From positions 1 through 46,805 of the forward strand of contig JBNJGH010000015.1 in the NCBI GenBank assembly GCA_051747585.1: a stretch of DNA of 46,805 nucleotides, in the 5' to 3' direction. A program made the translations under genes and the position numbers. Positions 3,415 to 21,764 of this stretch are shown here, piece after piece. The notes under the pieces are model-generated. The model did no database searches and was not told the DNA's origin. It saw only the letters and a program-made list of their open reading frames with translations. Source of the stretch: Candidatus Rifleibacteriota bacterium. Its GTDB lineage: Bacteria > Muiribacteriota > Ozemobacteria > Ozemobacterales > Ozemobacteraceae. Position 1 is the first letter of the stretch. Each line of letters begins with the position of its first letter.

Positions 3415-3449
3415 AAAAGGTGTGCAGCTTTTGTGGCTGCACACCTTTT
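3415..3449. terminator. Bidirectional intrinsic terminator between the convergent M42 peptidase and 1620-aa genes
   Basis: AAAAGGTGTGCAGC-loop-GCTGCACACCTTTT with A/T tracts on both sides. Confidence 0.8.
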
Positions 3450-3460: not shown

Positions 3461-6400
3461 TTATTTGTTTCTCATACCTTTGTCTATTGTTCTGATTATC
3501 AGATTTGTTCCGTATACCGGAATACTGCTTTTGAAGGTTCTGGAATTTTTATTTGAAGGACCTCGCCTGAATGATCCCCATTTCCAGTCACTCCAGGGAT
3601 CTTCCGGATCGCTTAATTCGCCGCCGTCACCAACGTAATAATCCCAATCCATGGCATTGTCATAAGCTTCTATTGTAACCGGTATGGACATCGGGAACTG
3701 ATCTGGAGTGCCTCGGAAAATACCTGTCACAGTTGGGCTTGTAGAAGCGATTTTCGGGTCATTGCCACCCAGGGAAGCTTCTTTCATCTGGCTGGTCCAT
3801 GTTGATTCGATTTCCTGCTCCTGCTCTTTTCCATCTGTGTCTAAATACCTGTAAGTGAGTTTTGCTACCGCGTATCCGGCGTTGTCGTTGACACCACAGC
3901 GGACTGTAAACTCGACGTTATCCTCGATGTAGGATGGAGGTGGAGTAGGATCAACTTTGTCATTTGCAAGGTCCTGATAATAGGCAAGCGCATTATTGCC
4001 GGCAAAGTTGAAGGTTATGTCCTCGCCGATTTGTGGCATGGCTTCATATTTTTCTACCGTTATGTTGTCTTGATTTTTGATCTTTATTACGCCGTTGTTG
4101 TCAGGGATCCAGTCAGACTGGTCGAGATAGTTTTCGATAAAGCTGCACTCTTCAGGGTTCCCCGGAGAGTTCTCTATTTTGTCTCTATCAGCTTTCCCTT
4201 TTAGTATTGGGAAGTAGCTTATTTGATTGTTTTTGTATTCGGTAAATTTTGCGAATGGATTTGGTTTGTGAACATCACGTGGATGCAGTGCAATATTTAG
4301 TTTTCTATTGGTTAAAACATTGCCCGAAGAGTCGCTTGCAGACAGATAGAATTTGTATGGTCTGATATGGGGAGTCCCTTTGATTGGCGCTGCATATCCT
4401 GGGGTGTTGTTGGCGTAGCTTTTGGGCAGAACATTTGAGTCTTCATCTTCGGAATTTACTGCCAGGTGACGTAGAGGCACATAGAAACCTATGGTAGATA
4501 TATGAACGTCTCTGTCGCCAATTCTGGTTTTGCTGGGCTGCTGCAAGAACCTTTGCATGCGCTTTTGAACCGGACCTGCATCGTTATAAAGGTGGGTGTA
4601 TTTTGTTCCAAATGTCTGAGCAAAGGTTTGGTCGCCACTGGCATCAGAACTTGGTGCATACTGGTCAGGTTCGAAAAGTTTAACACCACCGGTGTCAATA
4701 CGGGCTGCCCGGTCAAAGCTCAGGGCTACTTTACGATTTAAACGTTTAGCAAAAACAGGTTTGTAGTTAAACTTGGAAGTAGGAGCTCTTGAAGGCGCTC
4801 CAGAGTTGTGACTTTTGTTGTCCGCATAGGTCCTGGGATGTGTTATACCAATAACTGTATCGACAGATTCCCAGGGGTTGTTGTCGGAAATCTGGAAGCT
4901 GATCGAAGCCGGATTGCCCCCTAGTGGCCCATAGCCTGAACGTATGGGACCTCCCGCGTCTGCAAAAAGGTTTATGGGTTTGGTTTTATCATAAAGAATT
5001 TTTGGTCTTTGTTTGTCGACTATAAGAACCTTTGTTTTACCGTAAAGGGTAATACGTAATGGTTTCAGTTTTCCCAGATAGCGTTCTCTATAGCCGTCTT
5101 CGTCAAGCATCCACAGGTCATATTTCAAGGTGCGCGTCATCTTGATGTAAAGATCGGCATAAAATGGATCGGTAGGTGGTAAAGACATCGGAGTTGAAGC
5201 TTTAATGGGTTTGGGCTTGCCTCTGCTGTCTTTAGGTATGTTAGTGTATGAATCAAGAAGTTGAAGTGGAATTTCTTTTGGATCGCCATTTTTATCTGGA
5301 ACTGTATATTTCAAATAAGCTTCCAGTTCTATCGCAGTGGGATTGTCGTCATCTTTCTCCCACTCTAATTCATCGTCCACCGCCGGATCGTCCTTGAACT
5401 CAAGACCATCCATATAGTTGACGAACATGGTGTTAACCTGTTTCCCGTCTTCGTATTCAGGAGTTGTCATTTTATCTATCAGGAACTGGCGATAAGGGCT
5501 TCTATCATCGGAAAGGTCGGCAAAAAGTAGTGATTGTGAAGCCAGGTTAATTCTCCAGAAATATGGTTTGCCTGCTTCAAGGCCGTGATAGGTTGAGCCT
5601 CCTTCTTCTGCGGTTGCCCAGTGTCTGTTATTAGTTGGGTCATTGTCGTCCCAGCCATCACAGCGTTCAAGCTCGGCAATTAAATCTTCTGGAGGGGGAG
5701 GTTCAGAAGCCGTGCCAGCAACAACAATTGGATAACATGCGTAATTTGCGCTATGAGAATCCCCTTCTGCCTTTTCTGAAATATGACTTATATATTCAGA
5801 AGCAGAAGCCTGCATAAATTTAAAGGGCTTAGTATTCATTATATTCATGAGCTGACTGCTGGTAGGCTGCATTGTTAAGCCGCCTGGAGAAACCGGTTTG
5901 GCTCTGGTCTTGGCGCGGAATACAGATGCCTTGTCATCGACGGTGCTTCCGAACGGCAGAAGATCATAGTCATACCAGTCATAAATTACCTGACAGGTAA
6001 TAATGAATTTGCCATTTACCGGTGAATAAAATGCGGTAATATTACTTTGGCCTGTGCTGCTGCCATCTCTGGGAGTAGCTGTTTCTGGAACAGGTTTTGG
6101 TGGACAAACCGGATCACCGAATGGATCTTCAACCAGCCAGCTGCGCCAACGATAGGCGACACTTCCGCCATCTGTGGAAGATTTTTTATCGCTGATAGAA
6201 GTAATAAATCCACCGTGCCGGCCATCTCCATCCCAGTCGGGCTGATCATTTGGATTCCAGGCGTATGCCGACATCGGGTAGTTTTCTACCATAAAGTAAT
6301 ACATTGTATTTTTGGAGAATTCTTCAGGAGCAGGTTTCAGCAGGTATTTATTTTGCTGGGTGCTGTTTTCTTTCGGAGTAGGTATATCGGTGTAGGGGCC

Positions 6401-8323
6401 ACATATATCGAGAAATGAATCTTTGCCTGCCAGACTGATAACTTCCGGGGGAGTGGGAACATTGATAACGGCAATTTTTGCTCTGCCGGGGTCACGGCCG
6501 TTCAAGTCCGAATAAAGCCCAAGAGAACCTTCGGAAAAATCATCTTCGTCTATATCTCCATCGCCATTACCTATAGTGGTGTCGGCTGAATAACTGGCAA
6601 GTATGTCGTCGACTCTCCCACTTGGCATTCTAAGTGCTGTTAACTCGTCGAGGCATTTCTGGTTTGTGTGGACTGGAACGTTATAGTATTTTTTGGCAAA
6701 TACTTTTCGACCGACCTCTTGTGGAACGGAGCTATAAATACTTCTTTCGAAAACGGCTTTTGCATATTCCTGACAGTAAATCAACCAGACATTTTTTTCA
6801 TCCTCATCAGGGTCCTGGCGTGGGTCAGGATAAACTCTAATGGCGTCATTAAGTTCGAAATGTTTTTTGGGATTATAGCTATAGATGTCTTTAGTTGGGA
6901 AAGACATGGCAAAATAAAGATTACCGAAACCATCGGCTTTGATGTCGTCTATTTCACCTTCTGTATCAGCATCAATAAGAGAAAAAAGATCTTCGACATT
7001 GATGCGTTCATATCTTTCTCGTGAGATGGGCGGATTTTCAGGGTCATCTTCGTAACGAATAAATTTGTAAACTTTTCTTTCGTTTTTATCATAAGCAAAA
7101 ACGATGCCACCTTTCTGGTTCCATTGATTGGAAACAGTCACTGCCGAAATATTGATTCTGTTGTTGGTCTCGCTTGTTGCTTGTCTGAACCAGTTCTTAA
7201 TATCGTTTGTGCTGATAGTGTAAATATAGTCAGAGGTAACATTCCTCATTGAAACATCAATCCAGTAGGTATTGGTTCGCGATGGGCTGCCTATAATAGG
7301 ATTGTTACGTGGAGCCGGAGGGGCATATCTGGAGCGATTGAGGGTTATTTCGTAGTTTGTTTTACCAACAGGTCTTGAATAGAAGTAGGTTCGCGAAGGC
7401 TGATCTTTAATCGGGGGCATAAATGCAAGGTCTGTTATCATTGGGTCTGCAGAACCGCTTCCGGAGCCACTTGCGCCGCCGCAGCCATCGAGACAACCTG
7501 CAAAAATCTGACGTCGAATTCGCTTATCATAAGATACGGCAACGACAGCGCCGGAGTCTCTGCTGTAACGTGGAGCGTCAAGGTTTACGTTGTTGGGACT
7601 GTAGGTATAAAGGGTCCAGTTGTGAGCTCTGCCTTCTACTCTGTCGCCATAAACAACATAAAAGAAGCCGCGCGGACCGGGTCTGTTCCACTGGCATCTT
7701 TTTGTCCGCCAGCTCGAAAACCAGGCTCCGTTTGGAATTTCATACCATTGTTTTCCTCTGTAGACTCTTAACGGAATTGAAACATCGGGAAGGGGATTGC
7801 CGGGAGGAGTCGGAATAGGACGGCCAGGGCCTGCTGATCGGAAATGCGGCCACCAGCGTCTTCCCCACCAGCCATTTCTTCTTATTCGGCGTCCTCTAGG
7901 GCCGGTGCGGTATACATTGGTGTTTCTGCCCCAGGAACGGTGATCGTAATGAATGTAAGCGTGATAACCGTAATCGGCTAAATCTGTGCTGCCCGAGTCG
8001 AGAACCTGCCTCTTGAGCGGCTCGGAAAGCATGCTGAAGCCTCGCTGAACTCTTTCGGAAAAAGTGTAGATTTTACGGTTTAGATCGACCGAAAATCCGA
8101 TGGAGCTTAATGGCTGAAAAAGGTATTTTGGGGGGGAGTAGTATCGATCCTTTTCAGGATTGTTAAGGCGATAAATTCCTTTGTAGCCGCCTTCTCCTAT
8201 AAGAAGATAACATTCCCCGTTTCTTCTGTATTGGGGGTTGAGTTCTGCGTAAACAGAACTTGAAAATAAGATCGAAAACAACAGGATCACCAGGATCCCT
8301 TTAAAAAAGCGTCTTGCAGACAT
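3461..8323 (-). CDS. Giant exported protein (1620 aa), candidate pilus-tip adhesin in the PilY1-equivalent position
   Basis: Sec signal peptide (SSSVYA|EL), GGAGGGAG RBS, last gene of a minor-pilin operon. Acidic DxDGDG-type loops (DWDGDGR, NGDGDIDEDD). Ig-like strand patterns in the C-terminal part (IVDKQRP, SASDSSGN, VNDNAG, EAYDNA). The function is inferred from context. Confidence 0.6.
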   Translation of the reverse strand: MSARRFFKGILVILLFSILFSSSVYAELNPQYRRNGECYLLIGEGGYKGIYRLNNPEKDRYYSPPKYLFQPLSSIGFSVDLNRKIYTFSERVQRGFSMLSEPLKRQVLDSGSTDLADYGYHAYIHYDHRSWGRNTNVYRTGPRGRRIRRNGWWGRRWWPHFRSAGPGRPIPTPPGNPLPDVSIPLRVYRGKQWYEIPNGAWFSSWRTKRCQWNRPGPRGFFYVVYGDRVEGRAHNWTLYTYSPNNVNLDAPRYSRDSGAVVAVSYDKRIRRQIFAGCLDGCGGASGSGSGSADPMITDLAFMPPIKDQPSRTYFYSRPVGKTNYEITLNRSRYAPPAPRNNPIIGSPSRTNTYWIDVSMRNVTSDYIYTISTNDIKNWFRQATSETNNRINISAVTVSNQWNQKGGIVFAYDKNERKVYKFIRYEDDPENPPISRERYERINVEDLFSLIDADTEGEIDDIKADGFGNLYFAMSFPTKDIYSYNPKKHFELNDAIRVYPDPRQDPDEDEKNVWLIYCQEYAKAVFERSIYSSVPQEVGRKVFAKKYYNVPVHTNQKCLDELTALRMPSGRVDDILASYSADTTIGNGDGDIDEDDFSEGSLGLYSDLNGRDPGRAKIAVINVPTPPEVISLAGKDSFLDICGPYTDIPTPKENSTQQNKYLLKPAPEEFSKNTMYYFMVENYPMSAYAWNPNDQPDWDGDGRHGGFITSISDKKSSTDGGSVAYRWRSWLVEDPFGDPVCPPKPVPETATPRDGSSTGQSNITAFYSPVNGKFIITCQVIYDWYDYDLLPFGSTVDDKASVFRAKTRAKPVSPGGLTMQPTSSQLMNIMNTKPFKFMQASASEYISHISEKAEGDSHSANYACYPIVVAGTASEPPPPEDLIAELERCDGWDDNDPTNNRHWATAEEGGSTYHGLEAGKPYFWRINLASQSLLFADLSDDRSPYRQFLIDKMTTPEYEDGKQVNTMFVNYMDGLEFKDDPAVDDELEWEKDDDNPTAIELEAYLKYTVPDKNGDPKEIPLQLLDSYTNIPKDSRGKPKPIKASTPMSLPPTDPFYADLYIKMTRTLKYDLWMLDEDGYRERYLGKLKPLRITLYGKTKVLIVDKQRPKILYDKTKPINLFADAGGPIRSGYGPLGGNPASISFQISDNNPWESVDTVIGITHPRTYADNKSHNSGAPSRAPTSKFNYKPVFAKRLNRKVALSFDRAARIDTGGVKLFEPDQYAPSSDASGDQTFAQTFGTKYTHLYNDAGPVQKRMQRFLQQPSKTRIGDRDVHISTIGFYVPLRHLAVNSEDEDSNVLPKSYANNTPGYAAPIKGTPHIRPYKFYLSASDSSGNVLTNRKLNIALHPRDVHKPNPFAKFTEYKNNQISYFPILKGKADRDKIENSPGNPEECSFIENYLDQSDWIPDNNGVIKIKNQDNITVEKYEAMPQIGEDITFNFAGNNALAYYQDLANDKVDPTPPPSYIEDNVEFTVRCGVNDNAGYAVAKLTYRYLDTDGKEQEQEIESTWTSQMKEASLGGNDPKIASTSPTVTGIFRGTPDQFPMSIPVTIEAYDNAMDWDYYVGDGGELSDPEDPWSDWKWGSFRRGPSNKNSRTFKSSIPVYGTNLIIRTIDKGMRNK

Positions 8324-8360
8324 ATACTCCCTCCTTCATTAATCTGCGAACAAGGACAAG

Positions 8361-9341
8361 CTATTCTAAAACGGACTGAATTACTGCATTACCTATATTA
8401 GGGTCAATTTTATAAGCCTTGAAAATAGCTTTCAGCACTTCAACGGTCAGGTCTTGCCCGCCGATAAAGATGTCGTTATCAATAACTTTATTTGAAAATG
8501 GTTGTAGAATATCAGAGCCATTGTGAAGCCAGTTTTTTGCCATGCTGGTAAGATTGGAATAATAGCCTTGAATAGCGGGCTTATCATTTCTGATGGCTTT
8601 TGGGAAAGGCATTTTAAAGATTTTATTGTAATTGAGATCAGGAGAAATAACCGACTTTTCTTTTTCTAAAAATTTTAAATCACGGCTTTTGGAATTCAAT
8701 ACAATTTCGATTCCTTTTCGGTTGGCAATTTGTTTAGTATATTGGCGTATTTCATTGAGAATGCGGTTAAATTTCTTTTGCGTTTCTTCGAATGTCGTAT
8801 ATCCAGGCTCATAGCTTGCTTTTTCTAACTGGTCAATTTTTTCTTCGATTTGTAGCAGCTGAACTCCATAGGATTGTAATCTTGCTCCATATTCTGCTTC
8901 TTTCTCGCTTTTTTTCAGGTCATACTCTTTTTTCTTAAGCCTTCTTGGCCCTGTAGCCAGATGTTCTATTCCCTCAAGATAGTTGTTAGTCAATAATTCC
9001 ATTTCCCGGTTGAATTTGCGCTGGGTCTCTGTAATCCTGCCTTCAACAGCCTTTGCTTTGGTTTGTAATTGTTTTAATTCTGACTTGTGTTCTTGCGACT
9101 GTTGCTTTGCCCGTGCTTGAGTTACCTGGTCGGCTTTGAGTTTGAAACCCTGCATGTATGGATTGTAGCTTCTCATGGAAGGGTGAAGAAGAATAAGAGC
9201 CTTTAGATCGACTTTGCCTATAGCGGTCTGTCTTGCTGCATTTAACTTAGAAGATGAAGCATGATTAAAGATAGAAAGAAGTAAAATTATCGAAGAACAG
9301 ACTAGAAATTTTGAGTGTTTTGGTGAAATTCTTGTTTTCAT
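8361..9341 (-). CDS. Skp/OmpH-like periplasmic coiled-coil protein (enlarged)
   Basis: Signal peptide, then IGKVDLKALILLHPSM, long coiled coil, KQIANRKGIEIVLNS and GGQDLTVEVLKAI, which together match the OmpH N- and C-terminal signatures. Confidence 0.7.
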   Translation of the reverse strand: MKTRISPKHSKFLVCSSIILLLSIFNHASSSKLNAARQTAIGKVDLKALILLHPSMRSYNPYMQGFKLKADQVTQARAKQQSQEHKSELKQLQTKAKAVEGRITETQRKFNREMELLTNNYLEGIEHLATGPRRLKKKEYDLKKSEKEAEYGARLQSYGVQLLQIEEKIDQLEKASYEPGYTTFEETQKKFNRILNEIRQYTKQIANRKGIEIVLNSKSRDLKFLEKEKSVISPDLNYNKIFKMPFPKAIRNDKPAIQGYYSNLTSMAKNWLHNGSDILQPFSNKVIDNDIFIGGQDLTVEVLKAIFKAYKIDPNIGNAVIQSVLE

Positions 9342-9847
9342 TCTCTTGTTAACCTTCTTTTAACTGAAACTATTCTAATGGCATCTTTTGAGATGTTTCG
9401 TCCATATTGGTCTGTATATTCTGCTCCAGCTTGAATAAAAAGAGCCTCTTTGTTCCATTTGTTGTCAGTGTAAAGTGCCATGCTGGCAAGCTGAATTCCT
9501 ATTGCCTGGTTGTTAAACGAGGAGCTGGATTCCGTAAAATTGTTGATGGTAAATTCTGGAGCTTGGGTAGTAAAACTTTTGAGCCATTTATCATTGCCTT
9601 TTTCGGCGGCCTCCCAGCAGGCATAAAAATCACCGGGGTAAAGCTGGAACTTAAGCAGAGCGAGCTCTGTTAAACCTTTTGCCAGGTAATCGAGCTTTAT
9701 TCGTTCATCAATCTGAATTGTTTGTGGTTTGGAACTTTTAGTCATGCTGCTATAAGCCAGGGCCATTTGTAACAATACAACAGCAAAGACCAGGGCAAGT
9801 ATTAGTGCCATGCCTTTTCTTGGATTGTTTTTATAACGTATTTTCAT
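9338..9847 (-). CDS. PilX/GspK-like minor pilin
   Basis: Class III signal RKG|MALILALVFAVVLL lacking Glu+5, followed by DYLAKGLTELA, similar to the PilX N-terminal pattern. Confidence 0.75.
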   Translation of the reverse strand: MKIRYKNNPRKGMALILALVFAVVLLQMALAYSSMTKSSKPQTIQIDERIKLDYLAKGLTELALLKFQLYPGDFYACWEAAEKGNDKWLKSFTTQAPEFTINNFTESSSSFNNQAIGIQLASMALYTDNKWNKEALFIQAGAEYTDQYGRNISKDAIRIVSVKRRLTRE

Positions 9848-10410
9848 TCTCTTACCCTCGACTTAAAAGAAGCTAGACTGTATCTTTTCTGGCGGTTACT
9901 GCCTTTGTCTTTCCAGAAAACGGTCATAGTATACTGGTAACACATTTCTGAATAACTAATTTCTCTAATGTTCCAATCCCAGGCTTTGGGATCGTCTTTG
10001 TTCGCGGCTTTGGCAGCAGGATCATACATGGGAACGGTAAAGCTGCCTGGTCTGTCCTTTACTTTAAGCACAAATTTAAATTGGATGCCATCGATTTCTT
10101 CAGGGCCGACAACGAGTTTTATGATTTTACTGCCTGCCGTAGATTGAAGTGTTTCCTGAATATCTGTACCATATTCGACTTCCGGGTTTGCATTTCTTTC
10201 AAGATAACCAAAAGGCATTTGTAAAGCCTGGTTTATTTTTTGCTGGCATAAATTAACTGCTTTAATAGTTCTGTTGTCTTTGTCAGTAGCTTTTATTGAA
10301 GTGCCCATAACACCCATTATAGGGATAAAGGCCGTGGCAACCAGGGCCATGGCAAGAATAATTTCTGTCAGCGTTATAGCACTGTTCTTTCTATTTTTTC
10401 GTAAATACAT
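9844..10410 (-). CDS. PilV/GspI-like minor pilin
   Basis: Class III signal RKNSA|ITLTEIILAMALVATAF with Glu+5. C-terminal strand YQYTMTVFWKD. Confidence 0.75.
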   Translation of the reverse strand: MYLRKNRKNSAITLTEIILAMALVATAFIPIMGVMGTSIKATDKDNRTIKAVNLCQQKINQALQMPFGYLERNANPEVEYGTDIQETLQSTAGSKIIKLVVGPEEIDGIQFKFVLKVKDRPGSFTVPMYDPAAKAANKDDPKAWDWNIREISYSEMCYQYTMTVFWKDKGSNRQKRYSLASFKSRVRE

Positions 10411-10412
10411 AA

Positions 10413-11228
10413 TTAAAAGTCTCCGGGGGACATTTCATTAACCGGCACGGAAAAATCAATCCTGGCCTTAAAAGATTGCGATACTTTTGTTGCTTCATAA
10501 CGCGGATGCTGGCAAGTAATATCGACTCCGATTATTTTTTCGGTATCGTCCATGGCATCGGTGCCGGAAGCTATTTCAACCGTGAAGCTGGCTGCAAAAA
10601 CTTCTGTTAGTTTTATCGTGTATGGAGCATTCCCAAGTGAAAATACCGAAGGTGGAGCATTGAATTCCGGAGCAGTAAATTCCATCATGTCGGGAAAGTA
10701 GTCGACGGGACTGTTGAAATAATCAATGCCACTATGAGCAACTCGGTCGGTATTAGCATGAAAATAAAGGGTGTAAAGTTTTTTTGCGGCAGGGCGTGCC
10801 ATTAGACAATGGTGAAGAATGAGGCCAGGACCTTGCCCGGGTTGGGCCGGGTCGTTGCCAAAGGCCGTCATGTCAGGCTTGCAGATGCTGAAAAGTATAA
10901 GTCTGGTGTCGTCCTCTGGTCTTAATACAGTCGTATCATTTTCTACAGTAACAAAGTCAGATGCTGATTCTACCATCTGGTCATCTGGGGCACCCGCGCC
11001 AGGTTCAACTTGAACAGCATTAGATGCCTGTTCTATTCTCTCTTTTAAATTTGTAATAAATCTTTCCATCTCTTTTTGCTTGTTGAGTTTCCAGCTGCCG
11101 GTCATAAACATGCGACTACCCATACGGTAAAAAGAAAAAAGACCGACGAGAAACAACGATAAAACGCCAGCGGCAATTAATATTTCAACCAGAGTGAACC
11201 CATTTTTGTTCCGCTTCGCTTGGTACAT
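10413..11228 (-). CDS. PilW/GspJ-like minor pilin with prepilin N-terminal methylation motif
   Basis: KRNKNG|FTLVEILIAAGVLSLF. Start moved from 11267 to ATG 11228 because GAAGGAGA lies just upstream and gives a short basic leader. Confidence 0.8.
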   Translation of the reverse strand: MYQAKRNKNGFTLVEILIAAGVLSLFLVGLFSFYRMGSRMFMTGSWKLNKQKEMERFITNLKERIEQASNAVQVEPGAGAPDDQMVESASDFVTVENDTTVLRPEDDTRLILFSICKPDMTAFGNDPAQPGQGPGLILHHCLMARPAAKKLYTLYFHANTDRVAHSGIDYFNSPVDYFPDMMEFTAPEFNAPPSVFSLGNAPYTIKLTEVFAASFTVEIASGTDAMDDTEKIIGVDITCQHPRYEATKVSQSFKARIDFSVPVNEMSPGDF

Positions 11229-11277
11229 TAAATCTCCTTCTCTATATACCTGCAATATTTGTGCCATTTCTGTTTTT

Positions 11278-12216
11278 TTAATCTGGAGCCATTATTTTAT
11301 CAATTTCAGTATCATAATTCAGATTGTGTCGTTCTATTAAATCCAGAACACTTTCAACTGCACTTATTACTTTCTCATCAATTTCATACTTTTGGTAGAT
11401 ATTGGTTACGAGTTCTGTTGTCAGGTCATCGCCACCGGACAACACAAGAGGGTAAGGCTTCAGAGGAAGCATATCGAGTGAATCCGGGGAATGTACCAGC
11501 TCCAACCAGTTTATAAGTTTTCGAGATTCAGGAATTTCATCTGATGGCAAAATGTGGTCACGATTAGCAAGAAATGAATAAAAAAGACTGTAATCTATAC
11601 CCGGAACCCCAAGGCCGTATTGTTCGCCGGACACATATTTCAATGGATAGTTGAATGGCACCGTAATAGAGCTGTTTAAGACAATTTCATAACCCTTTTT
11701 GGCGGAAATTTGTTTTAAGGTTGAAAGGGTTTCCTGCTCAATTTTATTTAAAATTTCTCTGGTTTTTTCCGGGTTGGTAAGTTCGGGACAGGATTGCTGA
11801 TACTTGATTTCATCTATTTCCTTCAAAACTTTATCTGTTTTGGAATTGAGTTCGCGTAGTTTTTCAATTCTTTTGATTTCAGCATTGGAATCTAATGCCG
11901 GTTCATTCATAATTCGACCTTTTTTTGTATCTATCTTTATAAGCTGATTTTGCAATTCGTTAATTTCATCTTCCAGTTTAGAAGAGTTTGCTGTTTTTTT
12001 TAATTGCTGGACTTCAGTCTGGAATTCTTCATTTGAAAGGCCGGTCTGGACTTTAAAAAAGCCCATTCGATCAAAATCGAACAGTGACATTTTCGGGTGC
12101 AGGCTTATTGCCAGGCCCAGGTTTACTTTTGCTATATCAGCGCTTTTTAAGCTGGAAGGAAAAAATAAAAACTGAACAATAAAACAAACAAGAAAAAATA
12201 TTTTGATTTTTTTCAT
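11278..12216 (-). CDS. Skp/OmpH-like periplasmic coiled-coil protein (enlarged)
   Basis: Signal peptide, IAKVNLGLAISLHPKM, coiled coil, KQISAKKGYEIVLNSS, GGDDLTTELVTNIY. Confidence 0.7.
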   Translation of the reverse strand: MKKIKIFFLVCFIVQFLFFPSSLKSADIAKVNLGLAISLHPKMSLFDFDRMGFFKVQTGLSNEEFQTEVQQLKKTANSSKLEDEINELQNQLIKIDTKKGRIMNEPALDSNAEIKRIEKLRELNSKTDKVLKEIDEIKYQQSCPELTNPEKTREILNKIEQETLSTLKQISAKKGYEIVLNSSITVPFNYPLKYVSGEQYGLGVPGIDYSLFYSFLANRDHILPSDEIPESRKLINWLELVHSPDSLDMLPLKPYPLVLSGGDDLTTELVTNIYQKYEIDEKVISAVESVLDLIERHNLNYDTEIDKIMAPD

Positions 12217-12881
12217 CTATTTTCCCTTTCATTTATTAAAACAGGCTGACTAATTTGCTGAAACAAAAGTGAGATTCTATTTGTTCGTCGAAGGTAGTCA
12301 GAAAGTTCGTTAGCGTTTTGTGGGTTGTTAAAAAAATCTCTTAACAGATTTTTATTAAAATCTGGAGGAGGCTGATAAAATCTGGGTAGTTTATTCAGAA
12401 TGATTTTTTCCGAACCGGGCTCTAATTCAGCAATGGTTTCTTTCATGATTTGCTTTGCAATGGGCAATAGGGTTGTTGTGGGAGGGACGCCGCCGGTACC
12501 TATTAATTCTTCTATTTCGGGTAATTTGTTTTTTAAATTCAGAATTTTTTGATCTGATTTTTTTATTTTTTGCCAGAGGACCTTTTCGGCATCTTTGTCA
12601 TTTGAACCTGTAAGTGCCGCAGACACATGTTTCGATTTTTGCGTCTCGAGCTCTTTTATAGTGCTTTTAATATTCTTGAGTTGTTGTTTTAATTCTTTAA
12701 CGTCTTTTATGGCACTTTTAGTGTTTTTGAAGCGGTTTGTTTTACTGTCGAAACTTTTCATGAGAGGGTGCTGCTCAAGCAGTCTTTGAAGATCGCAGGT
12801 GTTAAAGGTCTGCGCCAATAACGGCAGACTGAAAAATATGAAAAAAATATTTAACATTGTAAAAAAAAATTTACGCATCAA
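12213..12881 (-). CDS. Divergent Skp/OmpH-like exported coiled-coil protein
   Basis: Signal peptide, FNTCDLQRLLEQHPLMKSFD aligns with the LHPSM/LHPKM motif of the two neighbouring paralogues, coiled coil, KIILNK. Confidence 0.5.
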   Translation of the reverse strand: MMRKFFFTMLNIFFIFFSLPLLAQTFNTCDLQRLLEQHPLMKSFDSKTNRFKNTKSAIKDVKELKQQLKNIKSTIKELETQKSKHVSAALTGSNDKDAEKVLWQKIKKSDQKILNLKNKLPEIEELIGTGGVPPTTTLLPIAKQIMKETIAELEPGSEKIILNKLPRFYQPPPDFNKNLLRDFFNNPQNANELSDYLRRTNRISLLFQQISQPVLINERENR

Positions 12882-13597
12882 TCTGGTAACTCCGGAAAAT
12901 CGAATTGATAAGGGTCTATTTCCAGATCAGCTCTGCGTCTAAGCAATTTAAGAGCCAGAAAGCGCTCAACCAGAGGGTGGTCTTCAAAAAGACTCATACG
13001 GGTTGAATTGATTGGAAATATAGCCAAAGACATTATTGTTGGCGGAAAAGGAATCTGATAGAAAATAAAAGAGACCCAGGCCATGCTGTTGGTCTCTTGA
13101 GCCCATGGCTGATTTGTGCCCGGGAAAACACCACGCAATCTACTATTCAGCATTATAACAATTTGATGGCACTTGTAATCTGAATTAGCATCAGAAAAAA
13201 AGGCAATTTTTAGATAATTTTTATCACTTCCGACAATTAATGGAGGATTGTTTCTATCGCTTTTTCTGGCAAGACTGAGGGGACTTTCGTCTGGTTCAAG
13301 CAATATCCAGTCAATCTTTGAGGGCCAGCCATCAAGCGCATTGATAAATTCAGCAAGGAACCGGGACATCATATTATGCTCTGCCAGCCAGTAAACTTTG
13401 TTTGTCGGCTTCTCTTTAAAACTGTTTGTTAAAAAGCTGAATTCAGCAATTGGGAACAAGGGAGCAGAAACAGGTACTTTTGTGAAAAACATCAATTTCC
13501 AGTCATGTACGGCAAGACTACACGCTGTAGAAGCTTTCGCCCAGCATGACAGTAAAAAAATCATTAAAATTAAATGTCGTATTAATTGAGGTTTCAT
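12878..13597 (-). CDS. Hypothetical exported protein (239 aa), first gene of the coupled pilin/Skp block
   Basis: N-terminal signal peptide. Stop overlaps the next ATG (ATGA). Confidence 0.65.
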   Translation of the reverse strand: MKPQLIRHLILMIFLLSCWAKASTACSLAVHDWKLMFFTKVPVSAPLFPIAEFSFLTNSFKEKPTNKVYWLAEHNMMSRFLAEFINALDGWPSKIDWILLEPDESPLSLARKSDRNNPPLIVGSDKNYLKIAFFSDANSDYKCHQIVIMLNSRLRGVFPGTNQPWAQETNSMAWVSFIFYQIPFPPTIMSLAIFPINSTRMSLFEDHPLVERFLALKLLRRRADLEIDPYQFDFPELPD

Positions 13598-13651: not shown

Positions 13652-16018
13652 TCAGTCTTCGACTGAAATTGTAATTTGCGAAGCAAACTCGGATTCCCCC
13701 AGTGCGGTAATAGTATGCTTTCCTGGCTTCATTGGCCAGTAAGCTTCGTAGGGCGGAGAGGTTCTAATAAATTCATTGCCGTTGATCATCCAGATAATCT
13801 CGCCACACGATCCTTCGGGAATTGCACGCAAATGCAAAAAGTTTTCGTGATAATTGCTCATAAGATAGGTATCGTTATTGTGGGGTGAAACAATCTTTAT
13901 TGTACATTGTTTGTTGCCAGTTGATGAAAGATTGCTTGTATTCTTTTTGCTATCCGCTGCTTTTTTTTGTTTATTAACACTAATGCCCGGTAGTTTATAC
14001 GGATCAGCTATTTGACTGAAACCCTTTAGTTTAAAAGGGTCTAAGCTGATTTTACGTGCTCTGTTTCTCAACCAGATTGCATAATCTGCTTCGAGCTCAT
14101 GAAAAACTGCTTCTTTTTTATGAAAGTCACATATACTCTTGGGCCGACTTTGCTTGGATATAAGATCAAGAGCAGTTCTGCTGCAGAGCTTCCCGGTTTT
14201 TTTGCCCGAGATTGCGCAGACCTCGATTGATTTTACTCCAGAGGGTTTTGTTATTGCTGAAAATTTGGCTCTTGATCCAAGGTCGCTGATTATATCTTTG
14301 AGTATGGGGCCACAGGCAGTTGTTCCGGAAAGAGCGCGAGTTGGAGATCCGTCAAAATTTCCGACCCATAAACTTATTATATAGTTCCCATTAAAGGCTG
14401 TTAGCCAGCTGTCCCGGTAGTTAGTGCTGGTCCCGGTTTTCAGGGCCCATCGATTTTTAAATTTAAAAAAGTCAGGGTTGCCGAAAGTAAATAGTCGGGC
14501 TGTAGGGTCTGAAAGAATTTCATAAATAAGATAAGACGTAGCTTCGCTAAATATTTGTTTTTCTCTAACCGGTTCGTTCATTATCATCGAAATTGATTTA
14601 AGTTTTCCTTGATTAGCAAATATGCCATAGGCCTGTGCCAGATCGATCATTTTAATTTCAGGGTTGCCTATCGCCAGCCCCAGCCCGTAAAAATCAGCAG
14701 CACCCTTTGTTTCTTCAAGTAACTCGGTTTCAACTAGAAGTTTATAAAAGCTTTTTATACCGATCAGGTTCAGCATTTTAACGGCAGAAATATTAAGGCT
14801 GTTGCCAAGAGCTGTTCGTATCGAAACCGGCCCATAAGATCTCTTGTTGGCGTTGTTGGCAAGATATTCGCCCTGGGGTGTTTTGTAGGTTCGCATCGTA
14901 TCGGGTATGACGAAAGAGGGGTAAAAACCTTGTTCGAAAGCCAGGGCGTATAAAAAGGGCTTTAAACTTGAGCCTCCTGATCTTTTGGCAAAACAGCCAT
15001 TATTATAGCCGCCGGCAATAGGACCAAATTCGGCAGAACCCACCATAGCAAGGATTTCCATTTCCGGAACATTAACGATCATTCCACAGAGCTGTCGAGC
15101 TCCGTAATCAGCAATGCGCGATAAATGTGAGCGTAAGGTGTTGTCGAGCAGATTTTGTAATGGCAGAGATATAGTGGTTCGCACCTTGCCTGATTCTAGT
15201 TTTCCGTTTTGTTGAATAAGATTGCAGAAATGGGGGGCTTTCAAAGGTAAGCGTGATTTGTATTCCGGAATATTCGTTTTAATAGCTTCCTTCCCCTGCT
15301 TTAAAGTGCAATAACCGAGTTTTATCATTTCTCGAATTATCCAGTCCCTGCGCTTTCTTAAAAGCTTATTGCTTTTGGAATCGAAAGGCGATAGTCTGCC
15401 CGGAGACTGCACAAGCGCTGCCAGCGTCGCAGACTCTGCCAGATTGAGATGTTGAGGCGATTTTTTAAATAAAAGCATCGATGCGAGGTTGAATCCTCTG
15501 ATATTGCCGAACATTGGGACTGAATTCAAATAAAACTCCAGAATTTCCTTTTTGCTGTATTTGCTTTCGAGCAACAAAGCAGAAAATAATTCCTGAAATT
15601 TGCTTTTGAAGGTCCGCGGTCTTGGTTTTAATATTCTTATAAGCTGTTGAGAAATAGTCGATGCGCCCGAAATGATTTTTAAATTAATCAAGTTCTGCCA
15701 GGTTGCCCGGACAATTGAAAAGATATTGAACCCCGGATGTTGAAAGAAATTCCTGTCTTCTGCGGTTAGCACTGTCTGCGTAATTTGCTGGGAGTGGCTT
15801 GCCAGAGGAAGATAAAAGTGCAAATCTCCATTGCGGTCAGGATAAATTCGTAAAGGATGGTTATAACGATCGGTTAAGACTGTTCCGGAATTAAATCTTT
15901 TCTCGACAAGCTTAACCGGATTGTCTGCGACAAAAGGCAGCCACCACGAGCGAAGCAACCACAGGCAAACAAGGCCTGTGGTTGCAATAACAAAAGATAT
16001 TGTCAGTTTCTTTTTCAA
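13652..16018 (-). CDS. pbpC: Penicillin-binding protein 1C
   Basis: Transglycosylase motifs AEDRNFFQH and GASTISQQL. Transpeptidase motifs SSLK, SLN, KTGTS. C-terminal PBP1C domain. Directly downstream of alpha-2-macroglobulin. Confidence 0.92.
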   Translation of the reverse strand: MKKKLTISFVIATTGLVCLWLLRSWWLPFVADNPVKLVEKRFNSGTVLTDRYNHPLRIYPDRNGDLHFYLPLASHSQQITQTVLTAEDRNFFQHPGFNIFSIVRATWQNLINLKIISGASTISQQLIRILKPRPRTFKSKFQELFSALLLESKYSKKEILEFYLNSVPMFGNIRGFNLASMLLFKKSPQHLNLAESATLAALVQSPGRLSPFDSKSNKLLRKRRDWIIREMIKLGYCTLKQGKEAIKTNIPEYKSRLPLKAPHFCNLIQQNGKLESGKVRTTISLPLQNLLDNTLRSHLSRIADYGARQLCGMIVNVPEMEILAMVGSAEFGPIAGGYNNGCFAKRSGGSSLKPFLYALAFEQGFYPSFVIPDTMRTYKTPQGEYLANNANKRSYGPVSIRTALGNSLNISAVKMLNLIGIKSFYKLLVETELLEETKGAADFYGLGLAIGNPEIKMIDLAQAYGIFANQGKLKSISMIMNEPVREKQIFSEATSYLIYEILSDPTARLFTFGNPDFFKFKNRWALKTGTSTNYRDSWLTAFNGNYIISLWVGNFDGSPTRALSGTTACGPILKDIISDLGSRAKFSAITKPSGVKSIEVCAISGKKTGKLCSRTALDLISKQSRPKSICDFHKKEAVFHELEADYAIWLRNRARKISLDPFKLKGFSQIADPYKLPGISVNKQKKAADSKKNTSNLSSTGNKQCTIKIVSPHNNDTYLMSNYHENFLHLRAIPEGSCGEIIWMINGNEFIRTSPPYEAYWPMKPGKHTITALGESEFASQITISVED

Positions 16019-16047
16019 GGCATTAAAACCCTTAGTTCAGCTTCGTT

Positions 16048-19000
16048 TTATCTCGATCCCTTGATTTCAATTTCTTTGGCTATGGTCATGCCGTAAATTT
16101 CAGGATTATACATTAATGAAACATGGGTTGGTTTCATTTTGAACCTGCCTTCGCAAACTGCTCTGAGGTAATATTCAAGTCTGAAGCTTCCGGACCACAA
16201 GCGGTTTTTAAAGGCCAGGACCTTGTCATCATGCATTTCCTGATGATTGGCATAAAACCTGTAAGAGCCGTTTTCCCAGCTGCAATAAGCTTGTTCGTTG
16301 TCTAGTTCGGATGCAGGAAGACTGTCATTTTTCAATGATGTGTTAACCGGAATAAAACCGGCAGGAACAGGGTCTTCAAGGGCAAGATAGTGTAGAATTC
16401 TGTGCTTGTCATCAAAATTGAATTTATCTTCAAATATTACCGTAACTTTTACCAGATCGCCGACTTTTATATCTTCTTCTCCGTTCAGATTCGTCAGTGT
16501 TTTGCTTATGTTAAAGCCTTTGTTAACCTTTTCCTGCCTGTTTTCATGGTCAGGATAATTGTAGTCGAGCGACCAGTTAAGCAAAACATCATCCGAACAG
16601 GTTATTTTTAAGCCATCCGGGTTTATTAGTTCTTCAGAAGATAACTCAATAGTTGCACCATACTTATTGACTTTCTTTGCAAAACTTCCTTTAGAAGTCG
16701 TTATAGATACTTCAATGTTTTTTTTGCTTTCTTTTATCTGAGTGCGTTTAAAGTATTTAGAAAGTGCAAGAAGAGCAAAGCCGGTGTCGGCAGTAGAGTT
16801 CCAATAGCCCTTTTCGGTGATGTTGTCGAGGATCTCGCCGGCAAATTGATCGGCTTGTTTAATATCGCCACCTGCCTCAAGAATGGCCATGAGAGCAAAG
16901 GCGTTTTCGCGGGTTGAAGAATAATACCAGCTGTGGGTTACGCTTTTATTAGCCGGTTTTAATCTCTTTAACATTGCGTGAAGCTGCATTTTATCGGTTT
17001 TGCCATTAAGGGTGCGGGCAAGTATCAGCAATGGAAGCGCCTCTGTTTCTTTGTCGCTGAACCCTTTGCCTATAACATCAAGATCAGCTTCTTTGAGTGT
17101 CTGATTCATTGCAAGGTTAACCGCAGCAAGAGCCATAATTCCCCTGCGATAGTTATTTTCGTTATTGTTACCGAAAAGGCCGTTTCTGGTAAACTTAACT
17201 GCTTTGTCGATGCGATCCTGATCGATAGTGAAACCGGCTTTTTTTGCCATGCTCAAGGCTAGAACAGCATATTGGCTTCCCCACCAGGAAATGTTGCTTG
17301 AACCGGGCCAGTAGGAGAAGCCGCCTGATGGTTGTTGCATTCCCAATATTCGCTCGATTCCATTTTCGATAAAGTCATCGACAGGTGTGTGGGCATAGGC
17401 TTGCAAGTATCCCTGATCTATAAGTTCTCTTATTGCAATTAATGGAATAATTGCCGAGCAGGTCTGCTCTATGCAGCCATAAGGATATTTAAGCAGATAG
17501 CCAATTGCAGGTACAATTTTCGACCATTTGCTTGCCGATAACTGAAGTCGTGCAGAAATGGTGCCCTGTTTTTTTGGTTCGGAAAGATTGGATACATATT
17601 TGGGAAGGTCAGGCTTAATTCTGGTCGATTTGGTGAAATGGCCACTGGAATACCGGTTAATAATGGTCGTTGCCGGGTTGATGGTCAGAGTTTGCTTTAT
17701 CCTGTCCTGCATTCCTTTGAAGTTGCCGGAAAAAATTATCGAACTTTTCTGGCAACCATTATCTGCATTCATCTGGATTTTGGAAGTCGAGTTGGTGAAA
17801 GCTTGAAGCTCAACCTGCCCTTTCATAGGTGTCATGCTGAGATTTTCTGCTTTTTCTATGCGGTAATCGGCAATACCAGAGAAATTGGTTTTATTTTTAA
17901 GACTGAGTGGGAAAACTGCTTTATCGCCCGCAGTTAGAAAGTTTGGTAAGCCCGGTTCTATATAAAAGTCTTTGCTGATAAGCAGTTGGCGATCTGTGGT
18001 CGCAAACGCCGAATGTTTATCGGCTGCAACCGCATAGATTCGATATGAAGTCATGCTGTCCGGGGCTTTGAAATTAATGGTTATTTTGCCTTGTTTGTCG
18101 GGATAAAGGGCTGGTGCCCAGAAGGCTACCGGTCTGAAGTCCTGGCGCAGATCAAAGTCTGCGTTTATGTTGCCTGTTCCGCCATCGCCGCCTGTTAATT
18201 CTTTTACTCCGATTAACTCGAACAATTCCTGGCTGATAAGTGAAGTGCGCAAATCACCTGAAAAAACTTTTAAAGGCAGAATGAAATCTGTTAACGAGTC
18301 TAGAGCAGGTGTTACAAAACCTGTAAGTGATAATACGGCTTCGTCGACAACGCAAACAGCAACTTCTGCTTCTGTAGGCTGCATGTCTTGATTTTTTATT
18401 TCAAGGTTAATTTCAACACTTTCTCCGGGCAGGGCTTTGAGCTCTTCGGGCTTGTCTGGAGCAATTTTAAGAGATAATTTCTCAATTTTGTTTTTAACTT
18501 TTATATTGGTAAAGCCAAAGTAGGTTTTTGGATAGTTTTTGTCGACCTGACTGGTATAAATCGGGAAATCACCACGCCGGGAGGGTGCGGTAAGGCTGAT
18601 ATAAACATTGGGCCTGCAATCTTTGCCGATGACCTTTTCCAGGCTGCCATGAGATTTTCCAACTTTTATGACTTCTGCGCTTAGAATTTCGTCGGTCTCC
18701 ATGGTAAGCAAGGCATAGTCGGCCGGAGAAGGCAGCGAATATCTGATTTTAACTTTGTTATTTATTTTAGCTACCTGCTTATCAGCTAGTAGAGCTATTT
18801 CATTTTCACTTCGTTTTCTCGAGTCATTGTTGTAATCGCGAAATCTTGAATATGAACCTTGAACGTAAAAGCTATAGGTCGATTTGAAAATGCCTTGAGA
18901 GTTTTCATAAGCAGCTTCGATTAGATAGTTTCCGCCTTCGGGTAGAACAAGGTCGAAGGTCGCTTTTCCGTTTTTAATTTCTCCGGTTAAGCTCTGGCTT

Positions 19001-21624
19001 CTCAACCAACCGTTAGACCAGTGGTAATAAACTTCTCCGGATTGATTGCGTTTCTGAGTGTAAAACCACTTTTGTTTCATTATGTCCAGCTTGATTTTAC
19101 CGTTCTGAATCTTTCGTCCTTCTTTATCAAGGGTTATTACCTCGAGAGGCAATTCCTGCCCTTGATTGATTATCGGGGGAAGCTTGCCGATTCCAACCCT
19201 GTAATCGGGGGTATGCTCAAAACTGTTAATTCCGGTTGCCGGTCGGCTGTCTACATCGAGAACTGTTGCAGCTATTTGAATACTTTTTGTTCCGCTCAAC
19301 ACTTCCTGTGAGACGGGAATCGATATTACAAGGTTCCCATTTTTGTCTAGAACGGAATTCCCTGCTTCGATAAGATCTTTGCTCTCTTCATTGTTGCCAA
19401 ACTGAAATAGTGGATAATCTGCAATTTTGGTGTCGCATTCTTTCAGGTGAGCCTGCCATTGAACTTTGGCATGGCGCAGAGGACCGCCGGCATAATAGCG
19501 ACTTTTAACAGTGCATTTAAGATAAGGCATTTTATTCTTTTGCCCGACAATGGTTTCTACCATTCTTTCTTCAAGCTTATTTTCGATTTCTACATAATGC
19601 CTTGGCGGTTGAAACTCCTGAACCTGAAAACCGGTTGAATTTAAGAAGGTTTCGACTTTTGCAGACTTCATGATGTTTTTATTCTTAGATATTAGTTTTG
19701 AGGGCTTTCTATTCATTAGAAAATCCCATTCAGGTGAAAGACCCTCAGCGGCTTTTGTTGTGTTTTCTGACAGCAAATAAAGTTTGATGTCGTAACGCCC
19801 GAGCGGGGAATATGATTTTAAGGCAAATGAATCTGATGCTGTTCCAAAATCGTTCAGTCTGTGGGTTTTGCCATAAACTTCTTCGCCTCGGGGATTATAA
19901 ATTTTTATCTTAACCTGCTCGCTATCGAGTGCTCTGATTTCATTTCTGGCAAAATTTCTCAGGGTGGCTTTCCAGAAAACGGTTTCGGCAGGGCGGTATA
20001 CTCCTCTTTCGGTGAAAATGTGCGCTTTTGCTCCCAGATTACTGCTTTTGTCGATATAAGCGGAATTAACAGAAGAAGGTATCAGCCTGTTTGTATTGAG
20101 TCTTACAAAGCAGCTGTCATCTTTTGTTGCTGCCGCTGCAATAAGCATGTCAGAGATTTCTCCTTTTTTACTGGTTATCTCCGGATTGTTATCTTTCCAT
20201 TTAATTGCCGGGTATGAGCTGTCGGCAGAGATTGTGATCAAACCATCTTTATCGGTTTTCCCCGGGAATAAAGTTACATCGTCTTTGAGCATTATCATTA
20301 AAGGAACATTTGCCACAGGTTCCCCCGAGTGCATTGAGGTTAGCCAGATGATAAGGTTCTTGCGACTGAATTTATATGTTATTGACAGATCGGTTACCTG
20401 AAAAAGTCTGGTGGCTTGCTGGCCGTTCTTTTTCTGATTTTCGGTTAGCTTGATTACGACGCTTCCACCTTTTTCCGGCTCAGGTCTAATATCAAGGGGC
20501 AGGGCAAAATAATATTCTTTATCGGGGTCTTTGGAGCCGATAAAGCCTTCGCTTGTCGAAGAAAAATCCGGGCGCAGAAAATTTTCTATGCCGGGAATCG
20601 TTTGCAGCTTGCTAAGCTCTTTAATCGCCTTGTTGCGGTTAACACAATCAAGCATGAGGTTGTCCAGCTGTTCTGCTGATTTTTCCAGAGCTTTCCTGGT
20701 GCTGCCTTTTACTCTGAAGGATGTAAATTCGTTATCTCTTTGTTCTTCGACTTGAGGAAAAATAGTCAGTGAATCAAGCCAGGGAGCAAATAAGGGCGGG
20801 ACTCTCATAAGCTGGCACTTAAAATCTCCGGTGTTTGCAAAACTTAATGGTAGCAATTGCCTGCTTTTAAGTTCTATAACCGATCGGTCAGCCGCGAACC
20901 TGATTTCGGGATCCGGGCCACAGGAAACAAAAGAAAAGTTGTCGGGGTTTAGTACATGCTTTTTGTCGCCGACTGACCCGCCTTCGATGGATATTTTATA
21001 TCTCTGCCCGGTAATAAACTTGCCGTAAATTCTGTATTTATTACGGTTTCTGGAATAACGCCGGTCTACCTGAAAGCGTCCGACAGGCGGAAAGATTTTA
21101 ATTTTCTTTTTCAGCAGGTGATCTCTGATTTTATCAGAAAGATAAATATAGACACCCTTATTTTTGGGTGATTGAAAATAAGGTTCGAAACCAAGAAGAG
21201 TTGTGCCGGATACAGTTGAAAATTCAATTGTTTTTTTTCTTTTCAGCTTTGCATTATTGTCGGCAGAAAGGCCTTTGTTAATAATAAGGCGATAATTTCC
21301 CGGCTTTTCCGGAACTTTAGAGGGTTTGATAATAAAGATTTTTCTTTCTGAGGGAAGGGCTTTTTTTTGCTCCCGGTCACCAAGTTCGGTGGAGTTATGA
21401 AATTCAAATTTCGTATTTCGCTCGTTAAACTCAAGATTGATGTTCTGTGATATTTCCAGGCTCGAAACCGGTTGATCAAACTCAAGGCGTATCTGCCAGT
21501 CCCGGGGTTGTACATTGCCGCTGCCCGAAAGCTGATAGTCGAGACTCAAGGGAGCCGCAAAAGCGGGCAATACGGTAGTAAAAAGCAAGAGAAAACCGGC
21601 AAGGAAAAAAGTTCTGAATTTCAT
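16048..21624 (-). CDS. Bacterial alpha-2-macroglobulin
   Basis: FTERGVYRPAETV, VVDEAVLSLTG, LRQDFRPVAFWAP, thioester motif YPYGCIEQT, EDPVPAGF. ATG 21624 follows GAGG; the track start GTG 21633 is the alternative. Confidence 0.93.
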   Translation of the reverse strand: MKFRTFFLAGFLLLFTTVLPAFAAPLSLDYQLSGSGNVQPRDWQIRLEFDQPVSSLEISQNINLEFNERNTKFEFHNSTELGDREQKKALPSERKIFIIKPSKVPEKPGNYRLIINKGLSADNNAKLKRKKTIEFSTVSGTTLLGFEPYFQSPKNKGVYIYLSDKIRDHLLKKKIKIFPPVGRFQVDRRYSRNRNKYRIYGKFITGQRYKISIEGGSVGDKKHVLNPDNFSFVSCGPDPEIRFAADRSVIELKSRQLLPLSFANTGDFKCQLMRVPPLFAPWLDSLTIFPQVEEQRDNEFTSFRVKGSTRKALEKSAEQLDNLMLDCVNRNKAIKELSKLQTIPGIENFLRPDFSSTSEGFIGSKDPDKEYYFALPLDIRPEPEKGGSVVIKLTENQKKNGQQATRLFQVTDLSITYKFSRKNLIIWLTSMHSGEPVANVPLMIMLKDDVTLFPGKTDKDGLITISADSSYPAIKWKDNNPEITSKKGEISDMLIAAAATKDDSCFVRLNTNRLIPSSVNSAYIDKSSNLGAKAHIFTERGVYRPAETVFWKATLRNFARNEIRALDSEQVKIKIYNPRGEEVYGKTHRLNDFGTASDSFALKSYSPLGRYDIKLYLLSENTTKAAEGLSPEWDFLMNRKPSKLISKNKNIMKSAKVETFLNSTGFQVQEFQPPRHYVEIENKLEERMVETIVGQKNKMPYLKCTVKSRYYAGGPLRHAKVQWQAHLKECDTKIADYPLFQFGNNEESKDLIEAGNSVLDKNGNLVISIPVSQEVLSGTKSIQIAATVLDVDSRPATGINSFEHTPDYRVGIGKLPPIINQGQELPLEVITLDKEGRKIQNGKIKLDIMKQKWFYTQKRNQSGEVYYHWSNGWLRSQSLTGEIKNGKATFDLVLPEGGNYLIEAAYENSQGIFKSTYSFYVQGSYSRFRDYNNDSRKRSENEIALLADKQVAKINNKVKIRYSLPSPADYALLTMETDEILSAEVIKVGKSHGSLEKVIGKDCRPNVYISLTAPSRRGDFPIYTSQVDKNYPKTYFGFTNIKVKNKIEKLSLKIAPDKPEELKALPGESVEINLEIKNQDMQPTEAEVAVCVVDEAVLSLTGFVTPALDSLTDFILPLKVFSGDLRTSLISQELFELIGVKELTGGDGGTGNINADFDLRQDFRPVAFWAPALYPDKQGKITINFKAPDSMTSYRIYAVAADKHSAFATTDRQLLISKDFYIEPGLPNFLTAGDKAVFPLSLKNKTNFSGIADYRIEKAENLSMTPMKGQVELQAFTNSTSKIQMNADNGCQKSSIIFSGNFKGMQDRIKQTLTINPATTIINRYSSGHFTKSTRIKPDLPKYVSNLSEPKKQGTISARLQLSASKWSKIVPAIGYLLKYPYGCIEQTCSAIIPLIAIRELIDQGYLQAYAHTPVDDFIENGIERILGMQQPSGGFSYWPGSSNISWWGSQYAVLALSMAKKAGFTIDQDRIDKAVKFTRNGLFGNNNENNYRRGIMALAAVNLAMNQTLKEADLDVIGKGFSDKETEALPLLILARTLNGKTDKMQLHAMLKRLKPANKSVTHSWYYSSTRENAFALMAILEAGGDIKQADQFAGEILDNITEKGYWNSTADTGFALLALSKYFKRTQIKESKKNIEVSITTSKGSFAKKVNKYGATIELSSEELINPDGLKITCSDDVLLNWSLDYNYPDHENRQEKVNKGFNISKTLTNLNGEEDIKVGDLVKVTVIFEDKFNFDDKHRILHYLALEDPVPAGFIPVNTSLKNDSLPASELDNEQAYCSWENGSYRFYANHQEMHDDKVLAFKNRLWSGSFRLEYYLRAVCEGRFKMKPTHVSLMYNPEIYGMTIAKEIEIKGSR

Positions 21625-21764
21625 TTGTCGCACCTCAATATTATCTTTCTGTTAAACATATTATCTCATTAATTAAATCAGATGCAAATAACGTCAGCTA
21701 TTATCGGTTCATGAATGTCAGCTCTTCATAAAGAAGACCAACCTTCAAACCAGCCTCATAAAGT

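Follow-up and report, generated by a model that had tools for sequence, protein, structure and literature searches.

A proposed type IV pilus tip module variant with probable Skp-derived helpers in Candidatus Rifleibacteriota

A 46,805-nucleotide stretch of a Candidatus Rifleibacteriota genome (hereafter the window) carries an eight-gene minus-strand operon in which we see a new form of the type IV pilus tip module, one with Skp-derived helpers of its own. In our preferred interpretation, to which we give a probability of about 0.55, the operon would be a swappable pilus tip module in which a giant exported protein is anchored by its tail to the minor pilin PilX, and Skp-derived proteins act as its dedicated periplasmic holders. 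We favour this interpretation because Skp-like genes adjoin giant genes, pilin triads accompany them, a tail is shared among giants and pilus machinery is present in the genome. The new elements are an architecture predicted to begin with the propeller, a tail that several proteins have in common, and the association counts.

The operon is genuine: a strong terminator closes it, and relatives have it too (Table 1). All eight reading frames described in the earlier note are found on the minus strand, in the order it gave. Its four stop/start overlaps are also present, but only three of them read ATGA, the first (between the 239-aa protein gene and A) being TTGA or TGATG; the remaining junctions are gaps of 10, 2 and 37 nucleotides. 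The same eight genes recur in relatives (we surveyed 41 genomes plus 23 matches from a word search), which argues against a chance arrangement, and they do so in three different gene orders. The interleaving with pilin genes noted earlier is thus not invariant; the 239-aa gene, A and B stay together across all three orders. The upstream neighbours, pbpC and an alpha-2-macroglobulin gene, differ in many relatives, and we therefore place the start of the unit at the 239-aa gene. This upstream pair, itself ordinary, occupies window positions 13652-21633. Homologues are labelled Ca. Rifleibacteriota/Ozemobacteraceae in the databases, although a few labels name other taxa. A promoter scan of the operon stayed at chance level, and a DNA-pattern search for relatives returned no matches. 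Contigs from the RNA libraries of one study, which are short and possibly include DNA, cover pieces of ~3600-11350 and none of pbpC; that they hardly occur across A, the 239-aa gene and the larger part of B carries no information. Further along the window (31170-36070) lie two tandem large membrane-type proteins of 866 and 767 aa with spermidine synthase-like domains.

Table 1. Features of the operon (window positions) and of four other tail-bearing proteins (positions within their loci)
Feature	Position	Strand	Basis or remark
Exported 239-aa protein gene	13597-12878	minus	ORF list
Skp-like paralogue A, 222 aa	12881-12213	minus	ORF list, hhalign
Skp-like paralogue B, 312 aa	12216-11278	minus	ORF list, hhalign
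PilW/GspJ-type (PilW/J-like) minor pilin	11267-10413	minus	G|FTLVE, PF07963 over cut-off
PilV/GspI-type (PilV/I-like) minor pilin	10410-9844	minus	A|ITLTE; E5 invariant
Short PilX/GspK-type (PilX/K-like) minor pilin	9847-9338	minus	G|MALIL, no E5
Skp-like paralogue C, 326 aa, directly upstream of giant	9341-8361	minus	Head motifs, hhalign, AF2 model
Exported giant, 1620 aa	8323-3461	minus	Predicted N-terminal beta-propeller and Ig/PKD-like domains
Giant's conserved terminal strand, final ~14 residues	3464..3505	minus	Candidate PilX-completing assembly strand
Intrinsic terminator, 14 pairs and T run, closing the operon	3415..3449	minus	Follows the giant
Tail protein	L179:2366-7291		No Skp-like neighbour
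Tail protein	L180:676-3297		No Skp-like neighbour
Tail protein	L181:1778-3964		No Skp-like neighbour
Tail protein	L182:331-3009		No Skp-like neighbour

The paralogy of A, B and C proposed earlier is borne out by hhalign (98.3-99.9%), and we read all three as remote Skp homologues, divergent and enlarged, that lie outside Pfam membership. Single sequences match PF03938 for C (E 0.006, 17.2 bits) and B (E 0.016, 15.8 bits), below the cut-off of 32.4 bits, and A has no match; seven of 20 C-type members reach an OmpH match at E<=0.01, the best at 2e-4. At the profile level, the C/B family scores 96% against 22 canonical Skp of the phylum, versus 30% for a reversed control, with 58% for a profile of B alone and 8% for A alone. 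Three head segments, tested separately, align in order to the matching segments of canonical Skp, which they rank 19th, 8th and 43rd among 3466 proteins. The head motifs (N-terminal strand-helix, helix-strand and GGxDIT helix, in this order) are present in C and B; A, in the three-gene form, is missing the last, the C-terminal GGxD[IL]T helix. The AF2 model of C (pLDDT 90) is almost wholly helical: its strand-helix head is followed by a hairpin of 51+45 residues and another helix-strand, and a family-specific helical insertion of ~65 residues precedes the last motif. Foldseek matches to this model are weak (E 0.08-0.9): SkpA of the T9SS (type IX secretion system; 8gl8) is the first row, 1sg2, 1u2m and 4kqt also appear, and E. 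coli Skp takes ranks 7-13.

Could this resemblance reflect nothing but a generic coiled-coil hairpin? Every PF03938 score falls under the cut-off, a PDB sequence search with the C profile gave no Skp match, and two VIA structural searches with C listed generic coiled coils only, Skp not among them. Against this stand the ordered head segments with their ranks, the whole-profile score relative to its reversed control and an atlas search in which OmpH was the sole named family (score 0.76, a lead only), so that we consider an origin of A, B and C unrelated to Skp very improbable. The OmpH check suggested in the earlier note thus supports a Skp-like identity at the profile level, below Pfam cut-off. 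The other identity it raised, that of the alignment proteins PilN/O/P, finds no support: there is no PilN, PilO or PilP match in Pfam or NCBIfam, and the C model is nearly all helix.

A separate canonical skp, which the earlier note proposed to look for beside bamA, is indeed found between bamA and lpxD, in a bamA-skp-lpxD-lpxC/fabZ-lpxA arrangement on contig C11, and canonical Skp is over cut-off in 41 of 41 genomes. The genes for A, B and C lie outside that operon, where the canonical copy occupies the place. Like Skp/OmpH (PF03938; 1sg2, 1u2m), the three proteins would combine a signal peptide, a beta-alpha head and a long helical hairpin, and they share the VAxxxGxxxVL and, except for A, the GGxD[IL]T motifs. 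They differ from it in length (222-326 aa, against 187 aa for the canonical copy of their own genome), in an invariant HP motif and the ~65-aa insertion, in scoring under the Pfam cut-off, and in being linked to the giant, not to bamA/lpxD. A precedent for such a departure is T9SS SkpA, described in the accessible parts of PMC10994853 as a Skp scaffold in a secretion role, a structural part of the extended translocon, its operon including a further Skp paralogue. As may be the case here, the scaffold serves a function other than the canonical one; unlike A, B and C, SkpA is a near-canonical homotrimer that binds the SprA N terminus and, in those same parts, is linked neither to pilins nor to the gene of a cognate giant. 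The portions of PMC9820271 at hand make no mention of Skp paralogues or heterotrimers.

What do the Skp-like genes travel with? Their tight partner is the giant, not the pilins. The family profile matches 39 of 41 genomes, up to 14 times per genome. From 234 matches we took 100 loci picked by Skp-like matches, which hold 107 Skp-like clusters from 37 genomes; eight are cut by a contig end, and 99 were counted. A giant lies directly downstream in 86 of the 99, and two of the clusters without one are A-B pairs placed after the giant of the same cassette. Conversely, 99 of 117 giant N-terminus matches (118 rows minus one duplicate) have a listed Skp-like match within 1.2 kb upstream, a count biased upward by a giant profile built from Skp-adjacent giants. 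The 18 others comprise two with a Skp-like gene directly upstream, three with one a gene away, the second of two tandem giants, one with a convergent Skp-like gene, two at a contig end or N gap, two with an unrecognised 335-aa exported gene and seven without any; for five or six of these 18 a Skp-like gene is in the cluster. Long open frames that resembled fusions of Skp-like and giant genes turned out to be separate genes.

The pilins behave differently. Of the 61 cassettes of the window's family, 56 have the full triad with short PilX next to them; among 25 cassettes with Skp-like and giant genes from other families, a distance rule finds the triad in only one, and a few more have pilins 4-6 kb away; paralogues and relatives make these counts non-independent samples. 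The conserved pilin linkage envisaged in the earlier note therefore holds within the window's family and is rare elsewhere, where Skp-like genes track the giant. In family f3, at least four loci (L051, L053, L055 and L056) show a lone Skp-like gene with a chemotaxis/response-regulator cluster, and no giant, immediately downstream; the gene content was examined for L051 and L056.

Copy number varies as well: the 61 cassettes of the window's family carry one (18), two (31) or three (12) Skp-like genes. The 1:1:1 composition suggested earlier is thus not general; three paralogues are a minority form, and a 1:1:1 heterotrimer could therefore apply at most to the three-gene subtype. All 15 orthologues of B are net acidic; those of A and C vary in charge. 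The acidity of B and the lost last motif of A are hints of a mixed oligomer, no more. A tree built by a quick method gives A, B and C a clade each and places B, weakly, next to the gene that has the C position in two-gene cassettes.

The 239-aa exported protein accompanies A and B. Its mature chain likely starts with a Cys, a second Cys is conserved, and no family or atlas match was found. Many cassettes carry an exported protein of 200-280 aa with a predicted mature Cys start (L183:8318-9091, L184:4938-5660, L185:8301-9020); the counterparts of the three cassette types have no detectable homology to one another.

The giant has no Pfam or NCBIfam match, and those of its 88 homologues that bear a name are all 'hypothetical'. 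Over its own positions ~1-597, a model of residues 27-880 (pLDDT 91.7) matches propellers, among them six-bladed ones of the YWTD type (235-246 aligned at rmsd 3.7-3.8 and Z 13.8-13.9 in the best local rows), and the propeller-plus-PKD surface protein 1l0q aligns across model positions 7-848 (Z 10.9, rmsd 16.7). The predicted fold is an N-terminal beta-propeller with large insertions, at about residues 27-620. Beyond residue 880, sequence patterns suggest Ig/PKD-like repeats; a PDB sequence search with the C-terminal profile gave nothing meaningful. With its Sec signal peptide (judged by eye), its large size and its place beside PilV/W/X genes, the giant recalls PilY1/PilC. However, PF05567 is matched neither in the giant nor in the genome (93.6% complete), and the predicted propeller is at the opposite, N-terminal, end, so that the giant is not PilY1. 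The PilY1 identity suggested earlier is thus not supported, while the role of tip protein gains support as probable: the giant is likely a new kind of pilus-tip adhesin.

The case for a tip role turns on the end of the protein. According to the accessible parts of Ellison et al. (PMC13533445), PilC/PilY1 licenses assembly by completing the sheet of PilK with its last ~10 residues, long or T2SS-type PilK give the strand in cis, and the same role is predicted for the non-PilY1 protein MshQ; substrates of the type II system (T2SS) need no strand addition, GspK bringing the strand itself. The giants end in a conserved short strand past the last Ig-like strand. A strict tail pattern is matched by 31 of 49 giants; most of the others belong to different families, whose tails vary. 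We used the 31, all from other genomes, to train a matrix, which gives more than 10 bits to eight of 3099 proteins of the window's own genome, and seven of the eight are large and beside pilin genes. These seven are three giants of the same family and four proteins without significant homology to the giant (1642, 874, 729 and 893 aa, in the order of Table 1), which are exported, lack Pfam matches and sit beside pilin triads. No Skp-like gene neighbours these four, which means that not every protein of this kind requires one. Among held-out loci, the score of the tail exceeds 10 in 15 of 16 window-family cassettes with a triad and in two of eight giants of other families. Short PilK-like genes have a tail-bearing neighbour within 3.5 kb in six of 18 cases, versus one of 30 for long ones (Fisher p 0.008, overstated since paralogues are non-independent and some short entries are fragments); among the 12 of 18 short PilX-like genes without such a neighbour, several are fragments or mis-binned. 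When the final 120 residues of the giant were predicted in complex with PilW, PilV and PilX, the score was 0.00 and the partner fold uncertain, a result that counts neither for nor against binding. The pattern fits the strand rule, and by analogy with PilY1/PilC the tail is likely a PilX-completing assembly strand. Some f4 giants carry acidic Gly/Glu or Asp-rich extensions past the tail (L061/L160:2522-7411, L162:6377-10717, L164:6645-11504, L050:4351-9162), which would not suit a buried terminal strand unless processed.

Of the triad's three class III signal peptides, the V- and W-like ones have an E5 that is invariant in their alignments and the X-like one has none, as in PilI/J/K; Met14 is the probable start of the PilW-like protein. 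The short PilX-like protein (158 aa when mature) is assigned by motif, position and a weak GspK match of one relative (E 4e-4); none of 25 X-like members matches Pfam PilX, and a PDB sequence search with the PilX profile gave nothing meaningful. The cassette has no motor or secretin gene of its own, but the genome encodes eight secretins, 24 T2SSE-family (PilB/PilT-class) ATPases, eight PilT over cut-off and a PilT-pilin-prepilin peptidase locus on contig C1. It also shows a very large expansion of type IV filament genes, with 102 N-methyl matches (73 over cut-off) in 58 clusters and ~48 PilK-like genes, 30 of them long (365-990 aa). Genomes of the window's family have 31-123 such pilin matches. 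A 990-aa PilK-like protein (L179:7847-10816, or C25:34844-37816 of the same genome) contains a Hint/Vint-type autoprocessing domain near residue 695 and ends Ser/Gly-rich.

The Verru_Chthon four-gene cassette (TIGR02599 etc.), which we take to be a repeated cassette of pilin-like genes, offers one comparison: our PilW-like protein matches TIGR02599 very weakly (E 0.08, far under cut-off), and the giant has no match in NCBIfam. Our literature searches, which covered mainly openly available papers, found neither this cassette (in work on Riflebacteria pili, Skp with pili and Verru_Chthon) nor the pilin expansion (Riflebacteria with pili or pilin) described, and the available parts of PMC7509429 make no mention of Riflebacteria pili. 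The closest known system is the T4aP tip, PilV/W/X with PilY1/PilC (PilIJK-PilC; clusters 1-3 of M. xanthus), with its I/J/K triad and E5-less K pilin. As far as the accessible text goes, that system also has an adjacent giant Sec-exported protein ending in a short strand (PMC13533445) and, in M. xanthus, several clusters per genome with accessory genes inside them (PMC13533445, PMC13190605). One such accessory, TfcP, is encoded in a pilin/PilY1 cluster and stabilises PilY1.1 (PMC13190605). Unlike PilY1, our giant would have its propeller first and Ig-like domains before the tail, the reverse order; unlike PilY1 systems, the genome lacks PF05567, and the cassette lacks FimU/PilE and has one to three Skp-derived genes. 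The MSHA tip (MshDOP with MshQ) is alike in predicted role, MshQ being a large non-PilY1 protein and predicted terminal-strand donor, but the consulted parts of PMC13533445 describe no Skp-like partner for it.

How might such a module work? The type IV pilus machine that it serves would have its genes at another place in the genome. The giant and A, B and C would be exported by Sec, and trimers of the Skp-like proteins could grip part of the giant during folding, or hold it until use; one-gene cassettes would form homotrimers, and those with two or three genes would form trimers that are either mixed or separate. With its final ~10 residues the giant would then complete the short PilX beta-sheet, the PilV-PilW pair would recognise the completed PilX to start a filament, and the pilus would carry the giant out through one of the several secretins, propeller outermost. 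The enlarged Skp relatives likely serve the giant, not outer-membrane proteins.

Several observations count against a tip module: the Skp-like genes of f3 (at least four) that precede chemotaxis genes without a giant, the roughly seven giants without a Skp-like neighbour, the near absence of the triad (1/25) and of high-scoring tails (2/8) in other families, and the weak Foldseek match of C to Skp (E 0.08-0.4). By analogy with SkpA, the Skp-derived proteins could instead be permanent structural parts, a trimeric clamp that structures a segment of the giant or docks the giant at a secretin. The invariant HP/M/F and GGxDxT motifs and the helical insertion suggest a fixed binding surface, T9SS SkpA heads the Foldseek rows (E 0.08), and such use of the Skp scaffold is established in the accessible parts of PMC10994853; yet within the window the cassette has neither a secretin nor a translocon gene linked to it, and a copy number of 0 to 3 is unusual for a fixed machine part, so that we regard this alternative as unlikely.

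Alternatively, the giant and its Skp-like partner may form a pair independent of pili: a chaperone and the secreted or surface protein it serves, or the cargo of a type II-like system. The triad would then have joined the pair in one family, where it would initiate a pseudopilus by which the giant is pushed out and released. We think this quite unlikely, although 24 of 25 cassettes in other families have no adjacent pilins, the architecture resembles that of 1l0q, and the triad has weak GspI/GspJ/GspK matches. The same tail ends four unrelated proteins beside pilin triads, and the 18-64 N-methyl pilin matches per genome in other families could act in trans; moreover, in the parts of PMC13533445 cited above, T2SS substrates have no need of a strand that GspK supplies itself, which sits poorly with a mature PilX of 158 aa.

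Returning to the tip module, we advance a wider proposal only tentatively, with the odds against it: Riflebacteria would hold a large library of swappable tips, in which short PilX is completed in trans by a strand shared among unrelated giants, and one propeller-first family would have its own Skp-derived cage, in the three-gene subtype the first heterotrimeric, single-client Skp. If the tip-module reading is true, the terminal-strand rule of type IV filament initiation extends to non-PilY1 adhesins of inverted architecture, and the Skp scaffold has been turned to a new use a second time after T9SS SkpA, as a client-specific helper. The one-, two- and three-gene forms would be a natural series for how a homotrimeric chaperone diversifies. 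Elsewhere in the window (37872-41372), a 1166-aa PilB/GspE-type ATPase with an MshEN domain carries ~600 extra C-terminal residues that have no confident Pfam match.
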